Positions 11,756 to 60,108 of a stretch of DNA of 64,000 nt are shown one piece after another. The stretch's first letter is position 1; every line of letters begins with the position of its first letter. The notes under the pieces are model-generated. The model was not told where the DNA came from, searched no databases, and was given only the letters and a program-made list of their open reading frames with translations. The stretch lies in NCBI RefSeq assembly GCF_054482595.1, contig NZ_CM137008.1, one strand, 5' to 3'. Made by a program: the position numbers and the translations under genes.

Positions 11756-11770
11756 TTCTTTGGGGCGTCT

Positions 11771-29185: not shown

Positions 29186-30220
29186 TTATGCGGTCAATAA
29201 TCGTCCGGGATTATCGATACAGAGTTTTTTGAGGATCGTTTTATCGACGCCGCGCTCCGCCAGATAGGCCAGAAAAACATCTGGAACAAATCCCCAGCCA
29301 TTACCGCCATTTTTAGCCCACATTTGTTTAAGGAAGACATCGTGGCTGAGAACAAGCTGATCGGCGTATCCCAACTCAATGAGATGAGCGACGGCATCGG
29401 CAGTCTCCTGCACCCCTGGCGCTATTCCCTCTTTCGGGAAGGTAATGTCTAGGCCAATCATGTCGAATTCCAGCCAGACACCTTTATCAAGCATTTTCCG
29501 CTGATACGCCACGTCTTTTCCTGACGGATCCGAGTGTGCGAGAGAGACTTTATTTGGCGAGACGCCCATTTCACCTAACACAATGTCGAGTACTTCATCA
29601 CCGCGACGAAGCCAGCCCGGCATGTGAATATTCATCGCCACATGAGGATTGTTAATCTGTGCCAGCGAGGCAGCCCGCAAGCTGTTATGCTCGGCTTCGG
29701 TAAATGTCGGTGAGACACCTATTTCACCGATCATTCCGGCACGAATATCCGTATCGCCAATCCCTTGATTCAATTCTTTATCGATCGTTGTCGCTAGTTC
29801 ATCAACCGTTTTATGAATTCTCTGGCTTTCAAATTTTTCCAGGTAGGGACCGGAGGAAGCAACAATATTCAGACCTGTTTTTAATGCGACTTCTCGTAAT
29901 GCCTGCGCATCTCGTCCGATAGACTCAGACCCTGTGGCATCAACAATGGTGCGACCACCGAGCGAGATAAAGTTATTAATTTCGAAGATCACATCTTCAA
30001 TAGGTTTGCGGTCCATATTATCAGCGCAGCAATAAGGATCGTGTTTTAATGCCCACTGGATTTCTGCCGTGACTTTTTTATCAACAAGCCGTTGTGAAAA
30101 AGGATAGCAAGGAGCATCCACAACAGAGGAAAGATCGTTGAACAGATGTTCATGAGGAAGTGTTAGCCCCATATCTTCACGGGCGACGGGGCCCGTCACA
30201 GTTTGTAGATAATCTTTCAT
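29186..30220 (-). CDS. Phosphotriesterase-family metal-dependent hydrolase
   Basis: 344 aa, PHEHL motif near N-terminus, PTE/TIM-barrel amidohydrolase features. Confidence 0.75.
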   Translation of the reverse strand: MKDYLQTVTGPVAREDMGLTLPHEHLFNDLSSVVDAPCYPFSQRLVDKKVTAEIQWALKHDPYCCADNMDRKPIEDVIFEINNFISLGGRTIVDATGSESIGRDAQALREVALKTGLNIVASSGPYLEKFESQRIHKTVDELATTIDKELNQGIGDTDIRAGMIGEIGVSPTFTEAEHNSLRAASLAQINNPHVAMNIHMPGWLRRGDEVLDIVLGEMGVSPNKVSLAHSDPSGKDVAYQRKMLDKGVWLEFDMIGLDITFPKEGIAPGVQETADAVAHLIELGYADQLVLSHDVFLKQMWAKNGGNGWGFVPDVFLAYLAERGVDKTILKKLCIDNPGRLLTA

Positions 30221-30222
30221 GA

Positions 30223-31188
30223 TTATACCTCCATTTTCTTCATTGTTTTCGAGGCTCTGTATTCCGGAATAGTGGTAACAATTGCACCGACCAGTGCAAA
30301 CAGTGTTCCGATGATCGTGACCAGATAAACGGTATTGCCCAGCGATGGAATTAATACGTCAATCAATACTGATCCCAGTAACTGGCCCGCCGTTGAAGCA
30401 ACCCCCAGCATCAGTAACCCAAGACCTCTGACCAAAATGGCCATTAAACCGATAGACATTAGTCCAAGCGGGCCGCCAAGATACATCCACCAGACATCTG
30501 GTAATTGAACAGTGACGTGCCCTAATGCGACACGAATAGCTAGCGCTGTGCCTAAAACACAAAATCCAACGATGAAATTCCAGGTGATTGAAACCAGCAT
30601 GGATCCCGTAGCTTCAGCTACTTTTGCATTTCCAGCGGGCTGCCATCCTGCAAGCAAACCAGCTAAGAACGGAAGAATGGCAAGTAAAATGAAAGAGGTA
30701 GAATGCCACTGCGGTGACACAACAAAAATCGTAGCAATAACCGCAAATAATGCACCGATGATGCGATAAGGGGTAAAGTATTTTTTCTCGTCGACACCGA
30801 TACCAAAGCGATCGCAAAGTAAACCAGACAGCAATAGCGCGGAGATCAGTGCGGTCTGAAACGTTGCGACCCCGAGTGCGCTGGCTGATGCGCCTTCAGA
30901 AAATACCACCATCGCTCCACAGAGACCGGCAAACCAGTTCCAGAGAGGAACTTTTCGGTTTTTAATCAGAGAAGGAATTGCCGCAAATTGTTGCCGGGTT
31001 TCTTTTCGCGCCATAATAATAAAAAACATCACGACTAAACCACTGGCAAAGGAGATAACTGCGCATGCATTACCGTCCTGTAACCAGTGACCTAATTGAC
31101 CATTCACCGCTGATTGCATAGGGGAGAGCATACCCGCAAGAATCGTGGCAAGCATCCATAAGGGAGTTGAGTACTTATTCTTTTTCAT
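30223..31188 (-). CDS. DMT-superfamily membrane transporter
   Basis: 321 aa, about 10 predicted TM helices, two-repeat architecture. Confidence 0.65.
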   Translation of the reverse strand: MKKNKYSTPLWMLATILAGMLSPMQSAVNGQLGHWLQDGNACAVISFASGLVVMFFIIMARKETRQQFAAIPSLIKNRKVPLWNWFAGLCGAMVVFSEGASASALGVATFQTALISALLLSGLLCDRFGIGVDEKKYFTPYRIIGALFAVIATIFVVSPQWHSTSFILLAILPFLAGLLAGWQPAGNAKVAEATGSMLVSITWNFIVGFCVLGTALAIRVALGHVTVQLPDVWWMYLGGPLGLMSIGLMAILVRGLGLLMLGVASTAGQLLGSVLIDVLIPSLGNTVYLVTIIGTLFALVGAIVTTIPEYRASKTMKKMEV

Positions 31189-31244
31189 ACATCAATCCTT
31201 CTATTATAGTAAATGGAGTAACTGGTGTTACCCCATTATTATTA

Positions 31245-32003
31245 TTATCTTGCAATATGAGTCAGTATATTTACCCACAACGCGGTATAGAACGGCCAGG
31301 ACATAAACTGCTGTGTACCCCAGTGCGGTGAACAGTCACTCATAAAGCAGGCTATTTTCCCGTTGTGATAGTTACCAAAGACCAGTAATGGATCGTTGTT
31401 TATTGTTAATACCACCTCAGCATTTTCTTTAGCGATCGCCCGGTTATAACCTAGGAAAAAAGGATATTCAGAGAACCCTTTAATAACCGGATGGTCAGGT
31501 TGTGATGGCTGTGCAATAACCCCCTCTGGTTTTTCGACACGATCGTCACCATCTAACATCGTAACCGGGAGCACATCAGCCAGAACTGTATTTTTATAAT
31601 TGGCTTTTGCTTCAATTCCCATGAATGAGAGATAGCCGCCAATCATCAATAACCCACCACCGTTATTCACATATTCTTTAATCAGTTCGAGAGCGTTTGG
31701 TTTTATGCGAAGCTGATAAAAAGTATCATTTTGTAGCAGGAAAGTATTACTACCAATATCACTAATAACGATGGCATCATATTGTTCTAACTGTGCCACA
31801 TCTTCAGGGAAGGCAATTTGTACCGTATGTGCCGGCATATAGGTGACATCTACCTGACTATTTTTCAGACATTGGAGTAACCAGGTCGCACCTTCTTCAT
31901 ATTTACTTGAGGTAAAACTGTCATATCCTTTTGAATGAATCATATGAATATGCCAGGATTCTCCAATAAAGAGCACCTTTAGTGATTTTTTGGTGTTATT
32001 CAT
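31245..32003 (-). CDS. Hypothetical cytoplasmic protein, possibly glutamine amidotransferase-like fold
   Basis: 252 aa; family call is weak, by recalled similarity only. Confidence 0.45.
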   Translation of the reverse strand: MNNTKKSLKVLFIGESWHIHMIHSKGYDSFTSSKYEEGATWLLQCLKNSQVDVTYMPAHTVQIAFPEDVAQLEQYDAIVISDIGSNTFLLQNDTFYQLRIKPNALELIKEYVNNGGGLLMIGGYLSFMGIEAKANYKNTVLADVLPVTMLDGDDRVEKPEGVIAQPSQPDHPVIKGFSEYPFFLGYNRAIAKENAEVVLTINNDPLLVFGNYHNGKIACFMSDCSPHWGTQQFMSWPFYTALWVNILTHIAR

Positions 32004-32016
32004 TCTCTGTCCCTTC

Positions 32017-33231
32017 TTAATGCGTAAAAATAGTTTGCTGATAATGTATACTCTGAATTCGATGTATCACAGATTCATGTTCAGGCATGTCGGAAGCATT
32101 GCTTGTCTCCACCGCCAGGGATGCAAAGGCGCTGGCATAACACAGTGCTGATTCCAGTGATTTTCCTTTCGCAAGTCCTGATGCCAGAGCGCCGTTAAAA
32201 GCATCCCCGGCTCCTGCCGTATTTTTAACGACCGCTGGAAACGCTGGCGAATGAATGAATTTTTTGCCATCAAATGCGAGTGAGCCCTTGCTACCGAGCG
32301 TGATAACCGTGTTTTTTACCCCTTTATTGTGGATAGCTTCTGCAGCTCGTTTAGCTGATTCAAGATCGTGTACGTCTATGCCGGACAGTAAACCAGCTTC
32401 TGTTTCATTGGGGGTGATATAATCAACATCCTGAATAAGTTCGTTGACGATATCATTATAGGGTGCCGGGTTAATAATGACCGGGATACTGTTTTTTTGC
32501 GCCAATGTGATCGCTTGTTGCAGAGCGGTATAATTTGTTTCGAGCTGCAGAAGTATGACATCAGAATTAATAATCGCTTCTTTCTGAATAGTTATTTCAT
32601 CGGACGACATTGTCATGTTGGCACCGGGATAGATCGCAATAACATTATCGCCAGTACCTTCATTAACAAGGATCGTGGCAGTTCCGGTTTGCGTTTCTTT
32701 CGTTTGATAAATTATACTTTTATAAATCTTAGACGAATTCATAAAGTTGATCGCATAATCACTAAAGTGATCTGTACCTACTTTTGTTATGAAATAAACA
32801 TCAGTATCGGCAAAGCTTGCTGCCAGCGCCTGGTTACAACCTTTTCCCCCCGGTGAAAATATAAAATTACTTGCCAGAAGCGATTCTCCGATAGTGGGAA
32901 GCCTCGGCAAATAACTGATGATATCAACATTAAACGAACCAATAACGCATACTTGACTTTTCATAGTTGAGTGGCCTTTTTTTATTCCCTGGGCTGTATC
33001 ATAATTTTCAAGCGCATAAGCGATTTCATTTTTCGCAATAGTATCAAGCGAGTCTAGGACGATAAAAGCACCGCCATGACATCGAGTCAGATAGCCAAGT
33101 CTGGCAAGTTCATTAAGATCTGATCGAATAGTTTCTTTCGTTACATTGAGGCTATTGGACAGATCGGATACTTTTACAGAACCGAATTTACTGAGTCGTT
33201 TCAATATTTCATGATGGCGTTCAAATTTCAT
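32017..33231 (-). CDS. DeoR-type HTH regulator fused to PfkB/ribokinase-family sugar kinase
   Basis: N-terminal DeoR HTH, C-terminal PfkB motifs (GGKGCNQA, ...AGAGDAFNGA). Confidence 0.75.
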   Translation of the reverse strand: MKFERHHEILKRLSKFGSVKVSDLSNSLNVTKETIRSDLNELARLGYLTRCHGGAFIVLDSLDTIAKNEIAYALENYDTAQGIKKGHSTMKSQVCVIGSFNVDIISYLPRLPTIGESLLASNFIFSPGGKGCNQALAASFADTDVYFITKVGTDHFSDYAINFMNSSKIYKSIIYQTKETQTGTATILVNEGTGDNVIAIYPGANMTMSSDEITIQKEAIINSDVILLQLETNYTALQQAITLAQKNSIPVIINPAPYNDIVNELIQDVDYITPNETEAGLLSGIDVHDLESAKRAAEAIHNKGVKNTVITLGSKGSLAFDGKKFIHSPAFPAVVKNTAGAGDAFNGALASGLAKGKSLESALCYASAFASLAVETSNASDMPEHESVIHRIQSIHYQQTIFTH

Positions 33232-33339
33232 GCTTCACCTCACTTCAGTTACGTTAATATCTGTCGATGTATATTGATGTGATAATCACCATAAAGTGGC
33301 GGGGAAAAGCAAAAAAAATCAAAAATAGCCGGAGAAAAG

Positions 33340-33500
33340 GTAAGCGTTAATGGAGAATCATATTGATGCTTATTTATTGGTGAGAACTACGTTCCATGGC
33401 AGGAGTTCATCAATACGGTTGGAAGGTTATTCCGGCAGTACGCTCAGGATATGGCGCAGATACTCTTCCGGATCAATGTCGTTCAGAAGGCAAGTGCCGA
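33340..33500 (-). mobile_element. IS66-family remnant: 3' end of transposase plus terminal IR (second copy, inverted relative to 6480-6690)
   Basis: Minus-strand translation ends ...VVLTNK*; terminal gtaagcg at about 33340; related but not identical to the first copy. Confidence 0.55.
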
Positions 33501-33842
33501 TAAGCCCATACAACAGTGCACTGCGCTCGCCGTCGAAGAACATAAAGTTTTTATTTCCGAGACAGATGGCACAAAGGGCTTTTTCCGCGGCATTATGTCT
33601 GCCTCCGCCTGACCGTCAACACTGTAATAACAGAGTGCGCCCCACTGATTCAGTACACAGCTGAACCATTCTCCCAGTCTGGATTTTTGGACAGCGTGGC
33701 ATTTTTCTCCACCATCCACGCATGCAGTGAGTCCAGTAACAGTTTGCTCTTCCTCTGCCTGACCACAAGATGTTCTGGTTCTGGCATACTGAATTTGGCC
33801 ACCTGAGCATAGGTAATATGCTCACCTTAGAACAACACAGAT

Positions 33843-34600
<758 letters not shown>

Positions 34601-34774
34601 GCAGCGATTTTCCCAGCGTGGTGCGTCTTTTGCATTTTACTGGTTCTGAGTTATCAATTATCTGTTCACTAATGACTACTCTAAAAAGTTGTATCAATTT
34701 AAGTGATATAGGGAGTCTGGAGATTCAGGGGGCCAGCCTAGGAACATTGGTTACATTTTTAGTTTCCAAACATT

Positions 34775-36175
34775 TTATTGTTCGAACTTCGGAGCAATCA
34801 GATTATCCAGATTGAATGTCTTCTCCCATTCTTCCTGTGTGAGTAGCTTACGTTCGACAACCACTATCTGATGGAGGGATTTGCCTGTATGGTATGCTTC
34901 GTGCGCCATTTCAGAACACACCTTATATCCCAGATGTGGCTTCAGGAGAGTCACAATACCGCAGGAATGCATTACCATCTCTGCAGTTCGATCGGAATTA
35001 GCTGTAATGCCATCAATGCATTTAGTTCGGAGTGTGTTACAGGCATTCGTCATCACCTTGAGTGAGGTGAACAGCGCAAAGGTGATGACCGGCTCCATAA
35101 CGTTAAGCTCAAGCTGACCAGCAGATGCCGCCAGCATCACTGTGGTGTCCAGCCCCTGAACCAGGAAGCAAGACTGGTTTGTTACTTCCGGGATAACGGG
35201 GTTAACCTTACCAGGCATAATGGAAGAACCCGGTTGCAATTGAGGCAGGTTAATTTCAGCCAGGCCGCAACGGGGGCCTGAAGCAAGCAGTCGAATGTCA
35301 TTACAAACCTTGGTAAGCTTCACAGAGAGGCTCTTCATGGCCGAACTGAGTGCAACATATGCACCACAGTCGCTTGTGGCAGCGATGAGATCTTCACTGT
35401 TCCTGAAATTAATGCCTGTGATCTGGGCCAGATATTTCACGGCTAAAGCGGGATAATCCGGGTGAGCGGTAACACAGGTACCAATCGCAGTAGCACCAAG
35501 GTTTACAACCCGCAGGTGTTCCTGTGCATTACGGATGACCCGAATTTCATCATTAATTGTAAAACCCCAGCCATGGAACTCCTGGCCGAGAGTCATTGGC
35601 ACTGCATCCTGCAGGTGAGTACGTCCCATCTTGAGCACTGTGCTGAACTCGTCAGCCTTTTTGTAGAATGCTCCTACGAGGTGTTCAACAGCTTCAAGCA
35701 ATACATTGCTTCGCAGCAGTAATGCCAGATGTAATGCTGTCGGATATGTATCATTGGTGGACTGACCAAAATTAGCATGGTCGTTTGGCGAAACGCGTTT
35801 GTAATCCCCTTTAACGCCACCAAGTTTTTCTGCAGCAAGATTGCAAATCACTTCGTTGCAGTTCATATTGGTTGACGTTCCGGCTCCCCCCTGAAGCCAG
35901 TCGGTCACAAACTGTTCCCGGTACTTACCATCAATTAATTGGTCGCAAGCCCAGATTAAAGCATCCGCAACATCAGCAGGAATTGTACCTAACTCCTTAT
36001 TAGCCATCGCAGCTGCTTTTTTCACATAACCGAAGGCAATGATGAAGAAAGGCTCCTGACTCATTGGCATTTCAGTGATATGGAAATTATCTTTTCCACG
36101 AAGTGTCTGAACACCATAATAGCAATCATCCGGAATTTCACGCTCACCAAGGAAATCGCTTTCAATACGAGACAT
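34775..36175 (-). CDS. Aspartate ammonia-lyase family protein (copy 1)
   Basis: 466 aa, fumarate-lyase signature GSSIMPGKVNP; about 99 percent identical to 55677..57077. Confidence 0.85.
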   Translation of the reverse strand: MSRIESDFLGEREIPDDCYYGVQTLRGKDNFHITEMPMSQEPFFIIAFGYVKKAAAMANKELGTIPADVADALIWACDQLIDGKYREQFVTDWLQGGAGTSTNMNCNEVICNLAAEKLGGVKGDYKRVSPNDHANFGQSTNDTYPTALHLALLLRSNVLLEAVEHLVGAFYKKADEFSTVLKMGRTHLQDAVPMTLGQEFHGWGFTINDEIRVIRNAQEHLRVVNLGATAIGTCVTAHPDYPALAVKYLAQITGINFRNSEDLIAATSDCGAYVALSSAMKSLSVKLTKVCNDIRLLASGPRCGLAEINLPQLQPGSSIMPGKVNPVIPEVTNQSCFLVQGLDTTVMLAASAGQLELNVMEPVITFALFTSLKVMTNACNTLRTKCIDGITANSDRTAEMVMHSCGIVTLLKPHLGYKVCSEMAHEAYHTGKSLHQIVVVERKLLTQEEWEKTFNLDNLIAPKFEQ

Positions 36176-36397
36176 AATATTCTAACTCCATTATTTGAAA
36201 ACAATGTGACAATAACAAATTGTTTAACCGGAGCTATGCTCTCGGAATTTGAATTCTTACATCATTGAAATAACATGTGATATCAATCTGTCAGAATTCT
36301 TCTGACAGTCAGTAACTGAATGCAGATTAACTGCCTGACTAATTATCAAATAGTAACTCTGTAACTACTTCCATAAAGAATGAAAATTATGATTCTA

Positions 36398-37696
36398 TCA
36401 GACCATCATTGGTGCAATCACAAACCCAAATGTCACTCCTGCAATAACACCACCCAACCCGGGTAGCATAAATGGGTGATTTAATAAATAATTGCCCACA
36501 CGGGTTGTGCCGGTAGTATCAAATTCCATCGCGGCGAGTGATGTTGGATACGTTGGAAGCACGAATACTCCCGTAACGGCAACATAAGATGCAAGAATTG
36601 CCCAGGTTGGTATGTTGAGTGCTACAGCCAGAGGAATAATTAACGGCGTAGTCGCTCCCTGTGAGTAAAGTAAAGCGCAGGTAAAAAAAAGAACTAATGC
36701 TAAAAGCATCGGATAAGTTTGTAAAATATCACCGGCGATATCTTTGATCTCAGTTAAATGCGCATCAATAAAGGTGGTACCTAAGGTTACAATACCAAGA
36801 ATCACTGCCAGCGAACTCATTCCAGCACGAAATGTGGAGGTCAGAATAATGTCATCAGTAGACATCTTACACAGTATTACCATCAGGCAGGCAGCAGAGA
36901 GCATGCAAATAATAATAATATCGCGCGTTTCCATCGGTTTGCTGATATCAAAACCCGGACGCAATTGGGGGAATGCAGCAAGAATAACAATGGCGATCGT
37001 CGCCAGCATGAATAATCCGACGGAAAGCGTTGCACCAGGTTTGATGCTGTTATTATTCTCGTATTTTTGCACCAGACCTTTTTGCAGACGTTCAAGATAT
37101 ACTTCGTCATCTTGTAATTCACACCCCTGTCGGGAGGCGATAAAAGCAGCAACCATCGCGGCGACAAAAGAGGTGGGAAGGCATACCGACATCACCTGAA
37201 TAAAACTGACGCCATTAACCTCCATAATAGTGAGCATAGCTGCCATTGCGGCACTGATTGGTGAGCCAGAAATTGCAACCTGTGAGGCGACAACTGAGCC
37301 AGCGAGTGTGCGGGAAGGCCGGATACCGGACTCTTTTGCTACTTCAGCAATTACCGGCAGTGTGGAGAAAACAATAAACCCGGTACCGGCCATAATGGTC
37401 ATTAACCAAGTGATAATCGGTGCGATTATGTTGATATATTTTGGGTTACGTCGCATGAAATTACTGGCTAAACGTACCAGATAATCCATCCCACCTGCCG
37501 CCTGTAAGGCTGAAGCTGCCACAACTACGGTCATAATAATCAGGATCACATCGACTGGCGGTGATCCCATAGGCAGACCAAATCCCAGAGTCAGGATCGC
37601 AAGGCCAAGACCGCCGCATAAACCAATGCCGATTCCTCCCTGACGAATACCAAAAAATATTGCGCCAAGTACAACGATAATTTCCAGCCAAACCAT
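36398..37696 (-). CDS. Anaerobic C4-dicarboxylate transporter, DcuA/DcuB family
   Basis: 432 aa polytopic membrane protein with DcuA-like sequence. Confidence 0.8.
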   Translation of the reverse strand: MVWLEIIVVLGAIFFGIRQGGIGIGLCGGLGLAILTLGFGLPMGSPPVDVILIIMTVVVAASALQAAGGMDYLVRLASNFMRRNPKYINIIAPIITWLMTIMAGTGFIVFSTLPVIAEVAKESGIRPSRTLAGSVVASQVAISGSPISAAMAAMLTIMEVNGVSFIQVMSVCLPTSFVAAMVAAFIASRQGCELQDDEVYLERLQKGLVQKYENNNSIKPGATLSVGLFMLATIAIVILAAFPQLRPGFDISKPMETRDIIIICMLSAACLMVILCKMSTDDIILTSTFRAGMSSLAVILGIVTLGTTFIDAHLTEIKDIAGDILQTYPMLLALVLFFTCALLYSQGATTPLIIPLAVALNIPTWAILASYVAVTGVFVLPTYPTSLAAMEFDTTGTTRVGNYLLNHPFMLPGLGGVIAGVTFGFVIAPMMV

Positions 37697-37754
37697 GATG
37701 TTCTCCGTTGTAAATATAATCTTTGTAAAATAACTTTCTGGCTGTGATTTAGAA

Positions 37755-38474
37755 TTATTGAGTTAAATGTTGATCTTTTCCGATACGATTTTCATACCAT
37801 TTTATTCCTGCGCGAACGAGTGAAGCGGTTGAATCAATATAGCGTAAAGGTTGATCTTTAACGGCTTGTGACAGAATAATGGGAATTTCCGTACAACCAA
37901 GAATCAAGATCTCTGCTCCGCGGGAAAATAAATTTTCAGCCTGCTCTTCCATCAATTTTTGCGCATGTGTAACATTTCCCGCTTTAAGTGAATAAATGCT
38001 TTTCATCACATTTTTTTGGCCATCTGCATCCGGGGTGATATAGTTAAACCCTAACGATTCAATTCCTTTCTGGTATAATCCCATATACAGCGTGGCATCA
38101 GTGGCCAGGAGGCCAATTCTAGTTTTACCACAGACGCGAACTTCATCGACCGTAGTATCTATGATACTTAGTATATCAATATGGCAAGCATCTTTTAGTT
38201 CTTTAAACCAATAGTGTGCGGTATTACAGGGAATAACAATACATTCTGCTCCTGCATCTTCCAGTTTATGCATATAGTCACGCATAACGGGTAAAGGCGA
38301 GAGCCCGTTATGCATTAATGCATCGGTACGGTCAGGAATATCCGGGATAGAAGAAATAATTAAAGGTATATGTTCTTGATCTCGTTGTGCTGCTGTAAAG
38401 GTGACAAATTTATTAAATAAGTCGACAGTGGCGGCCGGCCCCATTCCACCGAGCACACCGATTAAACCTTTCAC
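37755..38474 (-). CDS. Aspartate/glutamate racemase family protein
   Basis: 239 aa; two catalytic Cys motifs (IPCNTAH, LGCTE). Confidence 0.8.
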   Translation of the reverse strand: MKGLIGVLGGMGPAATVDLFNKFVTFTAAQRDQEHIPLIISSIPDIPDRTDALMHNGLSPLPVMRDYMHKLEDAGAECIVIPCNTAHYWFKELKDACHIDILSIIDTTVDEVRVCGKTRIGLLATDATLYMGLYQKGIESLGFNYITPDADGQKNVMKSIYSLKAGNVTHAQKLMEEQAENLFSRGAEILILGCTEIPIILSQAVKDQPLRYIDSTASLVRAGIKWYENRIGKDQHLTQ

Positions 38475-38813
38475 AATACTTACCTCTCAGAAAATCAATG
38501 CTCATAAACTTAAAAAACCATTTCTCCTTTTTTAACAGTCTCTAAAGGCTATGAGAAATGCAATGATGTACAATGCAATGCAAGACTTGCATGATGTAGT
38601 TTTGCAATATACATGAACCATATACTATTGTTGCATGAAGACCTATCATAATGATGAAAATAAACGCTTTTGGGAGAAGTGTTAAACTGGTTTAGATACA
38701 GAAAACGAATGGATTATGCATAAAACGAATAACTTAAATATGCTATCTGCATTCATTACCCCGGTTTTCGGGGGGTATACTAACTAAAATTTGATAATAC
38801 TTGGATAATAGAA

Positions 38814-39713
38814 ATGAAAAATATAGAGACCAAATGGTTATATGATTTCCTGACACTGGAAGCCTGTCGCAATTTCTGTCAGGCAGCAAAAGATCGTAAC
38901 CTTTCACAACCAGCATTCAGCAGACGAATAAAAGCGTTAGAGTCAGCTATAGGTGTTGTTTTGTTCGATCGTACAACCTCTCCTTTACAATTAACTGAAG
39001 AGGGTAGGCTTTTTCACTCCCAGACACGCAGTTTAGTGCAACAGCTTGAATGCAATCTGAATGAGTTAGGGGGGGATAATTCATTCAATTTGCCTAATAT
39101 TAAGATTGCAGCTGCGCACTCATTATCCCTCAGCATGCTACCTAAACTTCTGCACTCACTCACCACCTTAGGCGGAGACTTTATCTATCATGTTGAGGCT
39201 ATTGATGTCGTCCAGGCCGTAAATACGTTACGAGAAGGGAAGAGTGACTTTATTATTTCATTTCGAGATGAGGAGTTTATGCAATCGCCATTTTGTTGTA
39301 TAAAACTGTTTGAATCTGAGTTGTATCCGGTATGTGCTGCTGATCAACAGGGAAAACCGATTTTCGATCTTACCAATTCACAGGCTCCTTTGCTCGACTA
39401 TACTCCAACTTCTTATATGGGCAGACTGGTTAATCGTCATTTGGCAGAACAGGGAGGGATAGCCGGACACACAATATTGGTATCTTCAATGAGTGAACTA
39501 CTAAAAAATATGGCACTCAATGGACTTGGTATTGCCTGGCTCCCTCTCTGGTCAATCGCGGATGAACTGAACACAAAACGACTTGTGTGTCCGTGGCCTG
39601 CTAAATGGGCAGTGCCTATTCAGGCTTATATTTATCGTATGGATACTCGGCTGAACAAAACGGCTGAACACTTTTGGACGATTTTACGAAATAACATTAA
39701 AGAGAATAGCTAG
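38814..39713 (+). CDS. LysR-family transcriptional regulator
   Basis: 299 aa; N-terminal HTH (QPAFSRRIKALE); divergent from racemase operon. Confidence 0.85.
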   Translation: MKNIETKWLYDFLTLEACRNFCQAAKDRNLSQPAFSRRIKALESAIGVVLFDRTTSPLQLTEEGRLFHSQTRSLVQQLECNLNELGGDNSFNLPNIKIAAAHSLSLSMLPKLLHSLTTLGGDFIYHVEAIDVVQAVNTLREGKSDFIISFRDEEFMQSPFCCIKLFESELYPVCAADQQGKPIFDLTNSQAPLLDYTPTSYMGRLVNRHLAEQGGIAGHTILVSSMSELLKNMALNGLGIAWLPLWSIADELNTKRLVCPWPAKWAVPIQAYIYRMDTRLNKTAEHFWTILRNNIKENS

Positions 39714-40222
39714 AAACATCGTGGACAGTTTTTGTTGAGCACGACAAATCCACGTTTTTCTGGGGGTGAAGGGGGGGAATTCGTTAAACTGGATGTCTTT
39801 TGCTTTAATCAGTTCATCTCCTTCAGGATAATTCTGGCCATTGAGATCACTTTGAGAGGTATTTTTTTCTCTTTTCACATAGTAAATAATAACATTGTTT
39901 AATTAATAACAGAAAATATACTAAAATCAATAATTGTAATAATAAATTATTTGTTGTCCCAGATAAGTTAAGTGTCATTAAAATGCTGGACAATCCTCGC
40001 GTAACGGTATTTAATGACTACAGCACGTTCCAGGAAAAGCAGTGGAAGCAAATATTGGTCATTATGTCGAAAACACCGGAAACGTACTCTATATTGTGTA
40101 GTCATTTATTCAAATGACAGCGTATAAACAAATTGATCAGAATCACATTTTTTTGTGAAAATCATTGTCGAGAGGCAACATTTCATAGTAAGTGTATCCT
40201 ACAGGTCATGTATAAAACCTAC

Positions 40223-40932
40223 ATCATGTAAACAAACTCATCGAATTGCACCTCCTGTTTGTGGAGGTGCTTTTTTGTGCACAGCTCCCCAGCCAGGCTG
40301 GGGGTTCCGGAAAGCTTTCAGTTTTGAGCCAGTTATTAAAACCTCTTTTGATTTGTTAAAACACCTTGCGGTATGGCAACAGCAAGTGTCAAACAAAAAA
40401 TCAAAAGGGGGACCCAATGGGGAACGAAAAGAGCTAGCGCACCCCGATGGAACTGTAAATATCACATAGTTTTTGCGCCAAAATACCGAAGACAAGTGTT
40501 CTACAGAGAGAAGCGTAGAGCAACAGGCAGTATTTTGAGAAAGCTGTGTGAGTGGAAAAGCGTACGGATTCTTGAAGCTGAGTGCTGTGCAGATCATATC
40601 CATATGCTTGTGGAGATCCCGCCCAAAATGAGCGCATCCGGCTTTATGGGATATCTGAAAGGGAAAAGCAGTCTGATGCTTTACGAGCAGTTTGGTGATT
40701 TGAAATTCAAATACAGGAACAGGGAGTTCTGGTGCAGTGGGTACTAAGTCGATACGGTGGGTAAGAACACGGCGAAGATACAGGATTACATAAAGCACCA
40801 GCTTGAAGAGGATAAAATGGGAGAGCAGTTATCGATTCCCTACCTGGGCAGCGCGTTTATGGACCGTGAGTAACGAAGTTGGATGCAAATGTCAGATCGT
40901 GTGCGCCTGTTAGGGCGCGGCTGGTAAGAGAG
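40223..40932 (+). mobile_element. IS200 (IS200/IS605 family) inserted in dgoT
   Basis: Left-end hairpin cacctcctgtttgtggaggtg; TnpA with HxH motif; dgoT reading frame runs into IS sequence at about 40932. Confidence 0.7.
40373..40870 (+). pseudogene. tnpA: IS200 Y1 transposase TnpA, frameshifted
   Basis: Track ORF 124 aa (WNCKYHIVFAPKYRR...DHIHMLVEIPPK); canonical N-terminus and C-terminus lie in other frames. Confidence 0.65.
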
Positions 40933-41391
40933 CCTTATAGGCGCATGACCAGACGTATAAAAACCAACGGCAGAAGCGCGTTCATGTTCCGGGAACCAGC
41001 TGGTCACCATCCGGTTATTGGTCGGGAAAGCGGGCGCTTCGAAAATACTGGTTATCGCGCGCAGACCAATTAATGACATTAATCCCGTGGCAAAGCCCTG
41101 GAATAACGTCGCCACTGACCAGCCAAATATCGCAATAAAATAAGTCACGCGTGAACCTACGCGATCTAAAAACCAACCGCCGGGGATCTGACATAGCGTA
41201 TAAAGCCAGGCGAAGGCCGAAAATACATAGCCCATTTCCGCTTTGGTAATGCCGAACTCTTCCTGAATATGGGCGGCAGCCACGGCCAGGTTAGCGCGGT
41301 CAACATAACAAATGACCACCGTAATAAAGATCATCACCAGCGTCAGATAACGCCGACGCCCCGGCTTTGCTGCATTAACGGGAATATCCAT
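40933..41391 (-). pseudogene. dgoT: D-galactonate transporter DgoT, 5' fragment truncated by IS200
   Basis: [35 protein letters not shown]... MFS N-terminal region; 3' part of gene absent. Confidence 0.8.
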
Positions 41392-41510
41392 AGCGAGCTT
41401 TCTCCTGATTTTGGGCATAGCGAAGCCGCTCACCATGCCCTGTAATTTACAGAGGGTTATATTTTTGTATTGCTGTTTTAGTGCCCGATGAGGGGCTTAC
41501 GTGGCAGGAA

Positions 41511-42659
41511 TTACCACTCTGCTACGCTGTTATCTTCATGACGCCAGAGCGGATTACGCCAGTCCGGGGCATTTTTACTGAACTCAATAACTTTAGCTTC
41601 GTCGATTTCCACGCCTAAGCCCGGTTTCGTTAGCGGTTTAAAGAAGCCGCCGACCATGCTGAAGTCCTCTTTGTTTTTCACAAAGTCGAGTAACTCCGCG
41701 CCTTTGTTGTAATGAATGCCCATACTTTGTTCCTGAAGTACGGCGTTATAGGAAACAAAGTCGATATGCAGGCAAGCTGCCAGTGCAATCGGTCCGAGCG
41801 GACAGTGCGGCGCAAGGGTCACGTCATAGGCTTCTGCCATTCCGGCAATTTTGTAGCATTCGGTAATACCGCCTGCGTGGGAGAGATCCGGTTGCAGAAT
41901 CGAAATACCACCCGCCTCCAGCACACGTTTAAAATCGAAACGTGAGAACATGCGCTCACCCGCCGCCAGTGGAATATGCGTTTGTGCCGCCAGTTTCGGG
42001 TAGTATTCGGCCTGTTCTGCCAGCACCGGCTCTTCAATAAACAGCGGGCGATACGGTTCCAGTTCTTTAATCAGTACTTTCGCCATCGGCGCGCTGACGC
42101 GACCGTGGAAATCAAGACCAAACTCAATCTGATTGCCAAAAGCTTCACGAATTTGTGCCACGGTGTTGACCGCCGCATCTACCGCGCGGGAGTTATCAAT
42201 TAGCCCCAGTTCTTCACAACCATTCAGTTTGAAGGTATCAAAACCGATTTCGCGCAGGATTTTTATTCCGTCGATAACATTCGCCGGACGATCGCCGCCG
42301 ACCCAACTGTAGGCTTTAATTTTGTCACGCACCAGGCCGCCCATCAGTTGCCAGACCGGCGAATTCAGCACTTTGCCTTTGATATCCCATAACGCCTGGT
42401 CGATCCCGGCAATGGCGCTCATCAGGATTGGACCTCCACGATAAAATCCGGCGCGATACATCACTTGCCATAAGTCATTGATGCGCGATGGATCCTGACC
42501 AATCAAATAGTCACCCAGCTCGTGAACTGCCGCTTCCACCGTACGGGCGCGGCCTTCGATCACGGGCTCGCCCCAGCCGACCACGCCTTCATCGGTTTCA
42601 ATTTTCAGGAACATCCAGCGGGGAGGTAAACGATACGTGGTAATTTTGGTGATTTTCAT
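41511..42659 (-). CDS. dgoD: D-galactonate dehydratase
   Basis: 382 aa enolase-superfamily protein; operon context dgoRKAD. Confidence 0.9.
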
Positions 42660-43273
42660 TGCACTGCCTCTCGATACGCCTTAACAAATGCTGCTGCCTG
42701 CTGCGCGGTGCGTTCTACGGACTGCCCGGCGCGATAGAGATCGCTGCCTAAGCCTGCCCCTGCACAACCTGCGTCTATCCACTGCGCCAGGTTTTCTGGC
42801 GTCACGCCGCCAACGGCAAAGACTGCGATGTCCGGTGGTAATACCGCTTTTAACGCTTTGATGTATTGCGGACCAAAAGCCGATGACGGAAATATTTTCA
42901 GCGCCTGAGCGCCCGCGTCGAGCGCGGTAAAGGCTTCGGTCGCCGTCGCGCAGCCGGGGCAAACGGTCATGCCGTAGCCCACCGCACGGCGGATCACTTC
43001 ACTATGGATATTGGGCGTAACGATGAGCTGGCAGCCCATCCTGGCGAGCACATCGACCTGTTCAGGTTTCAGTACCGTACCTGCGCCAATCAACGCCTTG
43101 TCGCCGTACGCATCAACGATGGCGGGAATGCTCTGCTCCCATTGTGGGGAATTCAGCGGGATTTCAACTGCGTCGAACCCGGCGTCAATCACCGCGCCAA
43201 CATGCACCAGCGCCTCGTCGGGCGTAATGCCGCGCAAAATGGCGATCAGCGGGAGTTTAGTTTGCCACTGCAT
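42656..43273 (-). CDS. dgoA: 2-dehydro-3-deoxy-6-phosphogalactonate aldolase
   Basis: 205 aa KDPG-aldolase family; operon context. Confidence 0.88.
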
Positions 43274-44135
43274 GAGCGATGCTCCTTATACCAGCCTGAA
43301 ATGCCTTGTCGCCCGCCACCACCGCCACGTCGCAACCCATCGCCTGAAAGGCTTGCTGGTAGCGCGCGGTCAGCGATGTTCCGGCGACAAGGGTGATGGC
43401 GTGTTGATGGGTCACATAGTCGCGCATACTGGCAACCTCTGCGCCAATCAACAAACCAGAGAGAAATTCGCTGACCTGTTCGCGGGGAAGCGTTCCCAGC
43501 ACATGCGAGGCGCGAACTTCAAAAAGCTGCGGCAATATGGCGGGCGCATTAAGGCCACGCTCAAGGCCAGCCGCGAAGGCATCGGCAGAGTTTTCCTGCG
43601 GCGGCAAACCTGCGCCAATCAATGAGTGATTTAACAGTAAATGATGTAATTCACCGGTCATTACGGTGCGAAAATCGTTGATTTGCTGGCTATCGGCCTG
43701 CACCCATTTGCAATGGGTTCCGGGCATAACATAAAGAGAGGAAGGAGCCAGAGCACGCGCGCCGATCAATTGTGTTTCTTCGCCGCGCATCACATTGTGG
43801 TTATCGTCATGAGAAACGCATAATCCGGGAATAATCCAGATATTGTCGCCAACCGACGTTAATTGTTCGCCAATAGACGAAAAACGGACAGGAACAGATA
43901 AATACGGCGCAACTTTCCAGCCGACATTGCTGCCAACCATTCCTGCCATTACCACTGGCGTTTTCTCTTCACGCCAGTCGGTCGTGACTTCTGCTAACAC
44001 CGCAGCCGGAGATTTTCCGTTCAGGCGCGTGACGCCTGCTTCTGATTGCCTGCTCTCCAGGCAGTGGTCGCCCTGATAAAGCCAGGCGCGCAGATTGGTC
44101 GATCCCCAGTCAATTGCGATGTAGCGAGCTGTCAT
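43257..44135 (-). CDS. dgoK: 2-dehydro-3-deoxygalactonokinase
   Basis: 292 aa; operon context. Confidence 0.88.
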   Translation of the reverse strand: MTARYIAIDWGSTNLRAWLYQGDHCLESRQSEAGVTRLNGKSPAAVLAEVTTDWREEKTPVVMAGMVGSNVGWKVAPYLSVPVRFSSIGEQLTSVGDNIWIIPGLCVSHDDNHNVMRGEETQLIGARALAPSSLYVMPGTHCKWVQADSQQINDFRTVMTGELHHLLLNHSLIGAGLPPQENSADAFAAGLERGLNAPAILPQLFEVRASHVLGTLPREQVSEFLSGLLIGAEVASMRDYVTHQHAITLVAGTSLTARYQQAFQAMGCDVAVVAGDKAFQAGIRSIAHAVAN

Positions 44136-44821
44136 GTGATTTCCTTTAACCTTCGTGTCGAGCTGGCGATCATGGTAAGCGCCGCCTGCTCTGCCGCATC
44201 GCCGTCCTGATGCCGTATCGCATCGAACAGCGCCTTTTGTTCCTGGAGCGTTTGCGGCATGTTGGCCTCATCACCCATCCAGGTTCGTTCAAATACCGCC
44301 CGCTGCAGCGAACTGATCGCAATGCTAAGTTGCTGTAACACCGGATTATGTACCGACTGCAGCACCGCCTCGTGGTAGCGAATATCCGCTTCGTTAAACG
44401 CTTCGCGGTCCTGATTGTTGGCAATCATCTCGTTCAGCGCCGATTCAATCTGCGCCAGATCGCTGGAAGTCGCGCGCTCTGCTGCCCAACGGGCAATCGC
44501 CGGTTCCACCAGATTTCGCACTTCGCTCATGGCACTGATAAGTCGTGGGTCGTAGTCGTTTTCCAGCACCCATTGCAGTACGTCAGTGTCGAGGTAATTC
44601 CACTGGTTACGCGGTGCCACAAACGCGCCGCGATAACGTTTCATTTCAATCAGCCGCTTCGCCATCAGCGAACGGAACACCTCACGGATGATGTTGCGCG
44701 AGGTTGCGAACTCCTCACAGAGCTCCGCCTCAGCCGGAAGCGGCGAGCCTGGCACGTATTTGCCGTGAACGATCTGTTTACCCAGCGTAATGACGATGCG
44801 ATCGGTTTTATTGAGAGTCAT
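44132..44821 (-). CDS. dgoR: GntR-family regulator of galactonate operon
   Basis: 229 aa, N-terminal GntR HTH, FCD C-terminal domain. Confidence 0.88.
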   Translation of the reverse strand: MTLNKTDRIVITLGKQIVHGKYVPGSPLPAEAELCEEFATSRNIIREVFRSLMAKRLIEMKRYRGAFVAPRNQWNYLDTDVLQWVLENDYDPRLISAMSEVRNLVEPAIARWAAERATSSDLAQIESALNEMIANNQDREAFNEADIRYHEAVLQSVHNPVLQQLSIAISSLQRAVFERTWMGDEANMPQTLQEQKALFDAIRHQDGDAAEQAALTMIASSTRRLKEIT

Positions 44822-49549: not shown

Positions 49550-50581
49550 CTATTGTTCATAAATTGATACGATAGCTTTACCATCGTTGCCGATAGTTCC
49601 ACGATACATCCCTTCTGTATTGAAACTCATAGTATAATTACCATTCTTATCTAGAACAATGACACCACCACTACCATTAATGTTTTTAACTTCATCAAGC
49701 GCATTTTGAGCTGCTTCTTTCAATGGTGTATTTTTATATTTCACCTGAGCAGCAATATTGTATGCAGTTGAAGTTCTAATAAACATTTCTCCAGTACCTG
49801 TAGCAGAAACAGCAACGGTATTATTATCGGCATAGGTTCCTGCTCCAATTATTGGCGAGTCACCTACGCGTCCGTAACGTTTATTTGTCATACCTCCTGT
49901 TGATGTTCCAGCTGCCAGATTACCATCTTTGTCCAACGCGACTGCTCCAACAGTTCCATATTTATAGTCGTAGTTCTTTGGGGGGAGTAAAAGAGATGCT
50001 GATTTACCATTATGATCAAGGGTTATTTTTTCGTCTTTTAAAGCGTTCTGTAGCTGTTGCCAACGGAAATCAGTTTTGAAATATGCTGGCTCAACCATAA
50101 CTAAGCCTTGCTCTTTTGCAAATAGTTCCGCACCATTAGAGATCATTAATACATGAGGGCTTTTAGTCATAACTGCATAAGCAGCGTTTATAGGGTTTTT
50201 TATGGTCGTCACTCCTGCAACGGCTCCGGCCATTTTGGTTTTTCCATCCATAATTGCAGCATCAAGTTCGTTTTTGCCATCATGAGTAAAGACAGCGCCT
50301 TTTCCAGCATTGAAGAGGGGAGAGTCCTCCATAACATTAATTGCACGCTGAACAGCATCAAGGCTACTTCCTCCACTATTAAGCACAGCATACCCAGCAT
50401 TTAGTGCATCTGTTAACTTTTCTCTGTATTGTTTTTCTTGTTCAGGTGTAATAGTATCTTTTGTTATGGTGCCAGCTCCACCATGAATTACAAGGCGTAT
50501 TGGCGTTTGAGATTCAGCGTGAGCATATCCTATACACAATGCGAAGGCTGCCATTACTGTTATACCTTTTATTTTATTCAT
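49550..50581 (-). CDS. Periplasmic isoaspartyl peptidase / L-asparaginase (Ntn-hydrolase family)
   Basis: Signal peptide MNKIKGITVMAAFALCIGYAHA; Ntn-hydrolase motifs (GTVGAVALD); track ORF has 10 extra N-terminal codons. Confidence 0.8.
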   Translation of the reverse strand: MNKIKGITVMAAFALCIGYAHAESQTPIRLVIHGGAGTITKDTITPEQEKQYREKLTDALNAGYAVLNSGGSSLDAVQRAINVMEDSPLFNAGKGAVFTHDGKNELDAAIMDGKTKMAGAVAGVTTIKNPINAAYAVMTKSPHVLMISNGAELFAKEQGLVMVEPAYFKTDFRWQQLQNALKDEKITLDHNGKSASLLLPPKNYDYKYGTVGAVALDKDGNLAAGTSTGGMTNKRYGRVGDSPIIGAGTYADNNTVAVSATGTGEMFIRTSTAYNIAAQVKYKNTPLKEAAQNALDEVKNINGSGGVIVLDKNGNYTMSFNTEGMYRGTIGNDGKAIVSIYEQ

Positions 50582-50699
50582 AACTCCTCCTTTTGTCTGA
50601 AGTTTATACAATATAAATATTTAAACTTTTTCCATTATGTTTATTTGACTTCTATCAAAAAAAATTATGCTAATTCGATTTTGCAAAATTTAATTGCAC

Positions 50700-52005
50700 G
50701 CAAATAATATGCACATATTTTTTAGTGTAATGAGTGACTTTTATGGATAGGTTCCCGCTGACCTCTATCACCATACTTCCCCCCGCTTTCAGTAGGACAT
50801 CCGTGTCTGACTTTATATCGAGATTTCATGTGGAAGAGATAAATGCCGGACCTTGAGAAAGAAATATAACTCCCCAGTCTCGTTGAACCCTCTTGTTGAT
50901 CCACTTTTCAAGTACGTAACGATCCAAGTTCCGCCTGCCGTCCAAGGCGTTTGGTGAAGCAGCACGGTCCGTCACTGTCAGCCCACAACTTCCGCTCCCA
51001 CGGGCGCGCCACCGCGCTCTTCTTCTCATTCACCTTCTGTTTCAGTTTGCTCTCCACGAACGCCCTGATGTCCTTCAGCAGATGGTCGCCCGCTTTCCGG
51101 CTGCTTACGTAGATGTTGCAGTCGTCTGCGTAGCGGCAGAAGCTGTGTCCACGATGGCGCTTAACTGCTGCGCTATCGCCTGCTGGATAAGCCTGTCCAC
51201 CACCGTCGGGATGCCTAAGGTTCTCACGCCGCCATCCGGCTTCGGGATATCCATCCGGCGTATTGCCCGCGGCTGGTAGTTTCCGTCAATCAATACCTGC
51301 CATACGCTGCGCCAGTTCTTCTTCAGCCACGGTTTCAACTCCGCCACACCTTTGTTTTCCACCACGCGCTGATAAGCCAGCATCAGGTTTTCTCTCGTTA
51401 TCACCGCTTCCATCGTCAGCGGCACTTCCGCTTTCGTTTGCCCACCCGCCGCCGTGCTGATTTCAGCGCCATCATGCAGCCCTGACGGATACTGTCCGTC
51501 TCCTCTGCCGCTGGCCGCAGTTGCCTGCGCGTGTGCTTCATTAATCATCATCGGGTTCGGATGTCCTAATCACAGTTAATCATGTTCGGCCCTTCATGCT
51601 GCCGGTTTTGCAGCACTACTACGGCGTCGGCTGACTTCTGCCGCCCCATCCCGGCGCCTCACGGCACCGGTAGCACACTGGCAGGGCGACAGATCTCCCG
51701 GGGTAATTCACGCGACTTTCCTGCTTATGCCTGTCGGCTTTACGTCACAGCGTTCCGTGTGAGTATCGGGCTTTGGTGATTTGTGCCACCTTACCCTGCT
51801 GCGCCGCCTTAACCGCTTCCTGTTCGTCAGGCCAGCATTTTGCATCCGGCTTCCTTCAGATTTCACCTCGCGATGAACACCCTTGCCTTCCGCTAACACT
51901 TCCCCTCACCGGGTGTGTGGAGGACTTTCACCTCTTAGTCGTTCTTCAGCCACCACAGTTGAAGAACAGCGCCAGTCACGGCGCTACGCGCCATGCCCGG
52001 CGCAC
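50700..52005 (-). mobile_element. Group II intron fragment (5' domains plus truncated intron-encoded protein)
   Basis: Minus-strand GTGCGCC 5' consensus at about 52005; RT-like ORF 51105..51551; 3' part missing. Confidence 0.5.
51105..51551 (-). pseudogene. Group II intron reverse transcriptase/maturase, N-terminal fragment
   Basis: ...TRENLMLAYQRVVENKGVA...RRMDIPKPDGGVRTLGIPTVVDRLIQQA typical RT domains 0-2; truncated. Confidence 0.65.
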
Positions 52006-52196
52006 ATATGCAACGAGCGCCGATGTAAACGGCACCCGTAATATTTTAGCTGCAGGGCACGCCGTACTTGCCTGTAAAGAGATGGTGCAGTCAGGCCTTT
52101 TGTTTAAGCAGGAGCCCACCGAAATGATTCCGGCAATAGCCTGATTAGCAGGAATCCACATCCTTCTGGGCGTGGAGGATGACAATCTAAAACAAG

Positions 52197-53558
52197 TTAA
52201 TAAAAAATACCGATAATCGCAGAGTGAAAAACAAAACCAACTATCAGGGGTAAAGCAGTGCGTTTTACCACTTCGAAGGGAGTTATATTTGCTCCACTGG
52301 AAACCGCTATAACCACGCCAGATACGGGAGACATCGCACGCCCCATATGGGAAGCCTGCTGCATAGGCAGGATCATCGATATGGCATTCACGCCCATGCT
52401 GGCAGCGATTTGTGGTATCAGTTCAACAAAAGCCAGAAATGGCGCATTGCCCGATCCCATAATGACAGCTGCAGCCAGTGTAACCAGAGCAAAAACGATG
52501 CCCATCGCAAAAGGGGGTAACCCAACGTGCTCTGCCATCAAAATTAATTGATCTATCGCGCCAATGCTTTTAATCCCATGAGCAAACACACCTGCGGCCA
52601 CCAGTAAGCCCACCACGCCGGTAAATGCTGTCCCCATTCCTTTCAGGAAATGGGTAAACCCGTCACATACAGCTTTCAGATCACATTTACGGACCCATTC
52701 GATCAGCATGCAAATTGCCATTGAGATAAGAACAATCGTAATGATATTGAGATTAATTCCGGTGACAAAAATCTCCGATGAGCCAACGGCCATCAGGATC
52801 GGTAGCATAGGTAGCAGAGCATAATAAGCCGGCGTACTGCCTGCTTTTATGACCGTTGTCGTACCAATTTCATGAGGTAATGTTCCAGCTTTACGATCAC
52901 AGTGTTTCTGCCAGAAAAAGTGGCTGATACCGACAATCAGAACAGTCGCCAGAGCAGCAGGCCCCTGATGATAGACAACATACTCCACCACATCCATATT
53001 TACCGCTTCAGAGCCTCGTATGGCGTCAATGGCTGTCGGTGTGTACGCCACACCAAGAGAGGTGGCAATTACCCCTGCGGCAGACGCTGCTGACAGCCCG
53101 AGTCCGAGCATAATAGGAAACATGGTTCCCATCAGTAAAACAGCAAGTCCGGTAGCTGAGGGGATAGCCAGTTGAAGAAGACTGGCGAAAAGATAAGAGA
53201 AAAAAAGCAGAACATAGGGGGAACGTAATGTCCGTAATGGCCGGGTTACCACACGGACAACCGCTTCATTCGCACCGATATGGTCCATGTAATGCGCAAA
53301 TCCCATCAGGGTCATAATCATCAGACCGAGATCAGCCGCACGGGTACTGAATAAATTGCGCATGACTTCGAAAGGATCAAGAAAACTAATTCCTGTACCG
53401 GACACGCCCTTCGGTAACACTGTGCCCCAACCGGTAAACCAGGTACAAACCATCAGCGCAAGCCCGGCAATAAAAAGCACGGGTTCTGCACGATATCCTT
53501 TCAGGATTAAGCGAGCAACTATCACGATAACAAGAAGCGCGATAACAACTTTAATCAT
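52197..53558 (-). CDS. DcuC-family anaerobic C4-dicarboxylate transporter
   Basis: 453 aa polytopic membrane protein; DcuC-like C-terminal motif [25 protein letters not shown]. Confidence 0.8.
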
Positions 53559-60101: not shown

Positions 60102-60108
60102 TAACCTC

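Follow-up and report, generated by a model that had tools for sequence, protein, structure and literature searches.

A probable AspR-DcuA-type D-aspartate utilisation module with a duplicated aspartase gene on an Escherichia coli island

In Shigella flexneri, the ability to respire and grow on D-aspartate is conferred by the SRL pathogenicity island (Henriquez et al. 2020, PMC6980539). Two of its genes, orf8 and orf9, when cloned together, restore D-aspartate consumption, the appearance of L-aspartate and growth in S. flexneri and S. sonnei that lack the island, and phenotype arrays revealed no further D-amino-acid difference; the D-aspartate phenotype was measured in shaken aerobic cultures (PMC6980539). 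The pair has already been named AspR-DcuA in a review (PMC7545054). Here we analyse a related locus in a stretch of DNA of 64,000 nucleotides (NCBI RefSeq assembly GCF_054482595.1, contig NZ_CM137008.1; hereafter the window), in which a gene for a LysR-type regulator stands divergently from genes for a racemase, a transporter and an aspartase-family lyase (34775-39713). We consider it probable, at roughly three chances in four, that this locus is an AspR-DcuA-type module for the use of D-aspartate. The present analysis adds the allele, the derivation of its aspartase gene by duplication from a Sutterellaceae-type gene, the distribution figures, a conserved operator-like box and two warnings about annotation; the function of the D-aspartate module was already known, experimentally, in Shigella (PMC6980539).

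The Shigella genes and their counterparts in the window

SRL orf7-orf8-orf9 and the window have the same genes in the same order and orientation, namely a divergent LysR regulator, a two-cysteine racemase and a DcuA-family carrier. In the window, the regulator gene (38814-39713, plus strand) is an intact open reading frame of 299 amino acids, divergent from the racemase operon. A control region of 339 bp (38475-38813) separates its start from that of the racemase gene (37755-38474, minus strand; 239 amino acids, GTG start, intact), which is the orthologue of SRL orf8, or aspR, and encodes a two-cysteine racemase independent of pyridoxal phosphate (PLP). The orf9 orthologue, an intact gene for a DcuA-family transporter of 432 amino acids and putative D-aspartate carrier (36398-37696, minus strand), starts 58 bp past the racemase stop codon on the same strand. 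Beyond an AT-rich spacer of 222 bp (36176-36397, minus strand, 30% GC) lies an intact open reading frame of 466 amino acids for the aspartase-family lyase (34775-36175, minus strand). This gene is an addition seen in the window; neither the SRL allele nor any other close relative has it. These four genes had been named in a preliminary description drawn from the sequence alone, and an open reading frame check bore out their coordinates and strands and showed all of them to be intact.

The window and SRL-type proteins are 79% identical for the LysR regulator, 87-88% for the racemase (allele P0002) and 94% for the transporter, and the two alleles share the operator-like box upstream. At the DNA level the window allele is about 86% identical to the SRL type and occupies another chromosomal site; both alleles are on mobile islands. 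The homology between alleles ends at the transporter stop codon or within about 14 bp of it. The window alleles, with 88% identity in the racemase and 94% in the transporter, probably act like the SRL alleles.

The primers of the Shigella study made it possible to place its clones on these sequences. The region-forward, orf8-forward and orf9-forward primers match three E. coli loci (L008-L010) exactly, the reverse primers either carrying added sites or falling beyond the ends of these loci. We considered whether the window could be the SRL allele itself and rejected this: the orf9-forward primer matches the transporter start codon region (37679-37696) exactly, but the orf8 primer differs at two positions and the region primers do not match.

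Each of the three structural genes was assigned to its family by model score. The racemase scores 193.7 bits against TIGR00035 asp_race (cut-off 93.1), the transporter 587.9 bits against PRK09412 Dcu (cut-off 369) and the lyase 680.4 bits against PRK12273 aspartate ammonia-lyase (cut-off 510); on the stricter TIGR00839 aspA equivalog model, the lyase reaches 645, slightly under the cut-off of 681.2. Compared with E. coli AspA 1JSW and with 6WNG, the lyase shows identity or near-identity in the catalytic SS-loop, GSSIMPGKVNP, as well as in GGAGTS, QSTND and GRTHLQDAVPMT. Models and catalytic motifs together thus identify the lyase as a predicted aspartate ammonia-lyase (AspA, EC 4.3.1.1). The preliminary description had also held that this is not the canonical aspA-dcuA locus, and the proteins agree: identity to the K-12 proteins is 56% for the lyase (against AspA) and 48% for the transporter (against DcuA), and the transporter has 44% identity to a second Dcu protein encoded in the window.

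We propose the following scheme for the module. The LysR regulator, a member of the HypT family bound at a conserved T-N11-A box, would control the divergent operon; the DcuA-family carrier would import D-aspartate; the two-cysteine, PLP-independent racemase would turn D-aspartate into L-aspartate; and deamination of L-aspartate would yield fumarate and ammonium. This last step would fall to the housekeeping AspA in Shigella and in every other species examined, and in the E. coli island a Sutterellaceae-type aspartase copy 222 bp downstream of the transporter would make the module self-contained. We infer that the transporter itself moves D-aspartate and that D-aspartate is the inducer. The product may be used in anaerobic fumarate respiration, a plausible idea given what is generally known of DcuA, AspA and fumarate reductase; the Shigella work was aerobic. 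The preliminary description had suggested a D-aspartate module of much this kind, with emphasis on anaerobic respiration. Import and racemisation are supported by the published genetics on close orthologues and by conserved linkage, but the suggestion loses its novelty, as the system is known as AspR-DcuA.

The racemase reaction is reversible, and the same genes might instead make D-aspartate from L-aspartate and export it, for the cell wall or for signalling, or might mainly serve detoxification. D-aspartate is indeed toxic to strains without the genes, and L-aspartate appears in the medium (PMC6980539). Nevertheless, the phenotype that is gained consists of D-aspartate consumption and growth on D-aspartate as sole carbon source (PMC6980539), the racemase gene is linked to carriers of the uptake or antiport Dcu type and, repeatedly, to a catabolic aspartase, and no peptidoglycan or ligase genes lie nearby. 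We regard a reversed or detoxifying role as extremely improbable.

The one functional study of the module has a flaw in its design that bears on the transporter. Its orf8-only clone begins with ATGGGGCCGGCAGCTAC, which corresponds to codon 11 (Met11) of the 239-amino-acid open reading frame (L008, positions 8001-8047), and the clone lacks ten conserved N-terminal residues. These residues, MKGLIGVLGG, are invariant or nearly so among homologues and can be seen in the aligned chains from solved structures, and in an alignment of the intergenic regions the GTG or ATG start with its GAGG ribosome-binding site is kept across genera. The failure of the orf8-only clone to complement is therefore no proof that the transporter is required. 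This negative result is uninterpretable; the conclusion that both genes are required (PMC6980539) is weakened, which counts against the module as we describe it. Genomic co-occurrence provides independent support for the partnership of racemase and transporter.

Distribution of the cassette, substrate of the racemase and its regulator

We scanned one genome per species with the racemase alignment as query and tabulated the neighbouring genes by tblastn. Seventeen species-representative loci with at least 52% racemase identity (hereafter close loci) were recovered, including those of E. albertii, five cassette-bearing Citrobacter, Budvicia, Providencia, Proteus hauseri, Edwardsiella, Rodentibacter, Actinobacillus and Pasteurella bettyae. 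A Dcu1-type gene lies directly downstream of the racemase gene in 14 of the 17, its product 67-94% identical to the window transporter; the remaining loci are those of E. ictaluri, of a Budvicia copy situated where a contig ends and of one Citrobacter with the 3S7Z subtype. A HypT-family LysR gene is found nearby in every close locus but one (the second copy of Budvicia), and in 13 it stands divergently upstream of the racemase gene. No aspartase gene occurs within 8 kb in any of the 17.

Two further look-ups gave the same picture. Exact-protein look-up returned the three genes in C. freundii, in Providencia and in two other E. coli alleles, and a look-up from the transporter side placed Dcu1-subfamily genes beside a racemase and a LysR gene in four of four cases (Leminorella, Edwardsiella piscicida, Edaphovirga and a member of the Pasteurellaceae). 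The conserved unit is three genes (regulator, racemase and transporter), not four. The distribution of the module, proposed as a check in the preliminary description, comes out as a three-gene cassette present in Escherichia, Citrobacter, Providencia, Proteus, Budvicia, Edwardsiella and Pasteurellaceae; what was published as a Shigella D-aspartate module is a widespread, mobile cassette.

Within E. coli the racemase-transporter pair is present in 580 of 5426 complete genomes (about 11%) as two alleles, approximately 350 genomes carrying the SRL type (O104:H4 among them) and approximately 231 the window type. The four-gene form, as defined by the transporter-aspartase junction, occurs in 221 of the 5426 (about 4%), and poultry isolates are prominent among the matches listed.

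The racemase itself has the features expected of an aspartate racemase. Both catalytic cysteine motifs noted in the preliminary description are there, C83 in PCNTAH and C194 in GCTE; the two residues are invariant across 20 homologues and align with the cysteine pair of the Pyrococcus horikoshii aspartate racemase 1JFL. The closest solved structure by phmmer is 3S7Z, a 'putative aspartate racemase' (E 3.8e-74), and the second is 1JFL, the characterised Pyrococcus enzyme (E 1.2e-49). Positions aligned to R48 and K164 of 1JFL, which we take to be substrate-binding residues, are conserved. Model score, cysteine pair and basic residues thus all point to a member of the aspartate racemase family.

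The database name of the enzyme suggests a different substrate. RefSeq labels it 'cuyB: cysteate racemase' in several genomes because it passes the NCBIfam equivalog model NF052483 racemase_CuyB, with 250.4 bits against a cut-off of 190. This score weighs against D-aspartate utilisation and in favour of a module in which the racemase is CuyB and the substrate is L/D-cysteate or some other sulfonated analogue of aspartate. Aspartate and cysteate are isosteres, and BwCuyB was characterised without an aspartate assay (PMC11193023). However, the model does not discriminate between the two activities: the bona fide P. horikoshii aspartate racemase, even as a fragment of 208 amino acids, scores 235.6 bits. 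Bilophila CuyB was characterised through its partnership with the D-cysteate sulfo-lyase CuyA (PMC11193023), and tblastn with E. coli DcyD as query found no CuyA/DcyD-type lyase, either in the window or in loci whose racemase identity is 42% or more; DcyD matches were confined to four distant loci (L070, L082, L085 and L091) whose racemases are about 40% identical. In addition, the SRL allele confers a D-aspartate phenotype with no other D-amino-acid difference in phenotype arrays (PMC6980539). A module dedicated to cysteate is, in our estimate, highly unlikely, and the sequence leaves room for some cysteate activity of the enzyme.

The name given to the regulator calls for similar caution. 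The protein scores 383.9 bits on the NCBIfam HypT model (cut-off 301), is 57% identical to K-12 HypT and is encoded at a different locus; true hypT orthologues are 70-83% identical and lie in a yjiH-yjiG-iadA-hypT operon. When the regulator is aligned to the HypT methionines M123, M206 and M230, the first position is leucine and the other two are methionine; these three methionines are said, in work by Drazic et al. from 2013, to activate HypT. Identity as a hypT orthologue was rejected on the 57% identity, the different context and the leucine at the M123 position, and by sequence the regulator is best described as a paralogue within the HypT (YjiE) family. The RefSeq/PGAP names 'cuyB: cysteate racemase' and 'hypT: hypochlorite stress regulator' look like over-annotation for these genes, and both are likely to mislead.

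A candidate binding site for the regulator lies in the divergent control region. The palindrome ATGCAAGACTTGCAT at 38578-38592 is a T-N11-A box of the LysR type and is followed by TTGCATTTCTC (reverse complement at 38553-38563), the whole forming an operator-like element, ATGCA-N5-TGCAT and then TTGCATTTCTC, at 38553-38592. The columns ATGC...TGCAT...TTGCATTTCTC are invariant in nine aligned intergenic regions from E. coli to Proteus, against a poorly conserved background in which mean column identity is 50%. A second conserved element, ATTCGTTTT-ATGCAT-...-ATTCGTTTT, is found nearer lysR, at 38703-38731. The operator-like element fits control by the adjacent LysR protein, which would presumably bind there.

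HypT-family genes keep similar company elsewhere. In Citrobacter sp. R56 (L028, positions 8001-12043) and Hafnia paralvei (L030, positions 8001-12028), yjiH-yjiG-iadA-hypT is immediately followed by a convergent racemase gene of the 3S7Z type; in K-12 (L095) the position after hypT is held by iraD. Across Enterobacterales, HypT-family regulators accompany genes for abnormal aspartate (D-aspartate racemase, isoaspartyl dipeptidase), which may bear on their physiological signal; we offer this as a lead, not a conclusion.

Origin and role of the aspartase gene

Comparison of the window with itself revealed that 34775-36225 is an inverted copy of 55627-57077, over 1451 bp at 99.0% identity. The duplicated cassette on the minus strand comprises the aspartase coding sequence and 50 bp upstream of it. 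Its edges are sharp, one on the final base of the stop codon and the other 50 bp ahead of the ATG, and similarity stops abruptly on both sides, leaving the outer 172 bp of the transporter-aspartase spacer unique. Of 14 mismatches, 12 fall in the first 410 bp or so from the 5' edge, and the two aspartases differ at three amino acids. The other copy belongs to a locus on the plus strand (55627-58567), in which the aspartase gene (55677-57077) is followed by that of the second DcuA-family transporter (57233-58567).

The closest aspartases outside E. coli with a named source are those of Duodenibacillus (86-88% identical) and Sutterella (77-80%). On a Duodenibacillus contig, an aspartase gene and a Dcu gene follow each other in the same order across a gap of about 157 bp, the Dcu protein being 82% identical, and one E. 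coli genome carries the aspartase-Dcu pair together with ansB, dcuR, pepT, dcuC and the isoaspartyl peptidase gene, without the racemase module. By similarity and gene order, the second aspartase and its Dcu form what is best described as an aspA-dcuA pair of the Sutterellaceae type. Copying ran from this aspA-dcuA-like pair into the D-aspartate operon, because the other copy has the Sutterellaceae-type synteny and the pair occurs in E. coli without the racemase module. The preliminary description had counted the aspartase as part of the operon. The lyase gene is indeed on the same strand, but ancestral membership does not hold, as the gene is a recent duplicate missing from all 17 close loci and from every other close locus examined. 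An ancestral aspartase lost elsewhere was rejected on the same absence, together with the sharp-edged 99% duplicate and the Sutterellaceae-type synteny. One allele of the cassette has in this way gained its own aspartase, copied from a gene whose ultimate source is gut Betaproteobacteria, a case of pathway assembly by duplication within an island.

Whether the newcomer contributes to the pathway is a separate matter. The racemase and transporter could constitute the D-aspartate module by themselves, with the aspartase gene a by-product of rearrangement mediated by insertion sequences (IS) or of gene conversion in a mosaic island; it might be expressed on its own or stay silent, and would offer no more than housekeeping AspA does. 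Several observations tell against a functional aspartase in the module and fit such a passenger. The edges of the duplicate are cassette-like, and remnants of the IS3, IS66 and IS200 families flank the module on both sides; the gene is absent not only from the 17 close loci of the species scan but also from the SRL-type and other E. coli alleles; and it may have a promoter of its own, with two promoter-like matches in the duplicated 50 bp, though no more than chance would give. SRL-bearing Shigella, moreover, grows on D-aspartate without a module aspartase (PMC6980539).

On the other side, the aspartase reading frame is intact with only three amino-acid changes, the gene follows that of the transporter on the same strand after 222 bp with no terminator-like signal between, and the transporter-aspartase junction is kept in 221 of the approximately 231 E. 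coli genomes with the window allele type. Folding of the spacer gave only AT-rich hairpins without a U-tract (z = -1.7) and no canonical intrinsic terminator; a scan of 34400-40000 for consensus promoters and terminators gave matches equal to those in shuffled sequence (13 against 13.8, and 4 against 4.2) and is uninformative on operon structure. Adjacency of racemase and aspartase genes has also, it appears, arisen independently in at least three other lineages. In Edaphovirga cremea (L101, positions 4001-8672), a Dcu1-type carrier gene, an opposite-strand LysR gene and the racemase gene are followed directly by the gene for the enterobacterial AspA orthologue, which has 86% identity to the K-12 enzyme. 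The aspartase gene is directly downstream of the racemase gene in two Pseudomonadales genomes, in a Psychrobacter genome it is about 1.6 kb downstream, and in two betaproteobacterial metagenome-assembled genomes an aspartase-Dcu pair lies about 4 kb from the racemase gene. A literature search for a racemase linked to an aspartase in an island returned nothing beyond PMC6980539 and PMC7545054, and one for the Salmonella locus tag STM4510 gave no match. We think it unlikely, with some weight left to the idea, that the aspartase is a passenger, and we infer that it is functionally part of the module and co-transcribed with it.

Debris of mobile elements adjoins the gene. TAGGCTGGCCCCCTGAATCTCCAGAC, which we take to resemble the terminal inverted repeat of IS2 (IS3 family), begins about 34 bp past the aspartase stop codon (34741-34774, on to about 33849), where RefSeq annotates a degraded IS3-family transposase. 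This IS remnant may be a trace of the event by which the cassette's downstream edge was set.

The island and its relation to known systems

The locus is set in an IS-rich island adjoining the his-sbcB-dacD-sbmC-yeeA/cbtA region, and its DNA is 100% identical in many E. coli chromosomes from poultry, human and water sources. The racemase and LysR genes and the intergenic DNA have a GC content of 32-42%, compared with 48% for the whole window. A tRNA scan for an integration site of the island found none within the window, and an Rfam search over 33000-41000 returned a single match, the IS200-associated STnc490 RNA, outside the module. This match is full-length (40284-40407, 122 bits) and falls in an IS200/IS605 remnant in 40155-41436; a truncated gene for a dgoT-like MFS transporter (40840-41436) abuts the remnant. 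An apparently complete dgoR-dgoK-dgoA-dgoD set (41511-44821) lies near the his region, not at the K-12 dgo position, and may be an extra copy. On the other flank, just beyond the IS debris next to the aspartase gene, a block of four minus-strand genes (29186-33231) encodes a phosphotriesterase-related protein, a DMT transporter, a glutamine-amidotransferase-like protein and an HTH-PfkB kinase fusion annotated rikA.

Further along, a cluster of aspartate and asparagine genes extends over 49550-63055. It includes aspartase copy 2 and the second DcuA-type carrier, with genes for an isoaspartyl peptidase/asparaginase (49550-50611), dcuC (52197-53558), pepT (53555-54811), an ansB-like gene (59055-60101), dcuR (60695-61420) and a GntR regulator gene (62399-63055). 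Together with the D-aspartate module, this cluster looks like an island specialised in feeding aspartate into fumarate.

We tentatively consider a wider reading, which we hold to be possible and less probable than not: that the 30-kb stretch is a composite aspartate-harvesting island, put together from the enterobacterial D-aspartate cassette, the Sutterellaceae-type aspartase-Dcu pair and the asparaginase, isoaspartyl peptidase, PepT, DcuC and DcuR genes, and that the aspartase duplication was adaptive, bringing racemisation and deamination under one D-aspartate-responsive regulator. D-amino acids from the microbiota are a pool of nutrients and signals in the gut, and fumarate derived from aspartate is a recognised electron acceptor of enteric bacteria. 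If the wider reading were true, about 4% of E. coli could respire anaerobically in the gut with fumarate made from D-aspartate of the microbiota, and HypT-family LysR proteins would, as a corollary, primarily sense abnormal aspartate metabolism (D-aspartate and isoaspartate), not hypochlorite.

The module invites comparison with three further systems besides that of Shigella. The canonical E. coli aspA-dcuA locus (b4139-b4138) likewise has an aspartase and a carrier of the DcuA family, encoded on one strand, and yields fumarate and ammonium from aspartate. In the window, however, the order is reversed, with the carrier before the lyase, a racemase gene stands in front and a LysR gene alongside, and the aspartase groups with Sutterellaceae enzymes (77-88%), not with enterobacterial AspA.

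Among solved racemases, 1JFL and 3S7Z have the fold family and the catalytic cysteine pair in common with the window enzyme. Both phmmer E-values and alignments place 3S7Z closer to it than 1JFL, but racemase genes of the 3S7Z type adjoin the true hypT-iadA operon without a Dcu carrier, unlike the window module.

The Bilophila CuyB system uses a racemase of the same superfamily as that of the window (PF01177, two-cysteine mechanism) and also joins a racemase to a carrier and, downstream, to a lyase that acts on an acidic amino acid. The carrier is of the SDF family in Bilophila and a Dcu protein in the window, which has no PLP lyase of the CuyA/DcyD type. The flow would also be opposite: in Bilophila it runs from the L to the D form, towards a D-specific lyase, whereas in the window we propose that it runs from the D to the L form, towards an L-specific lyase.

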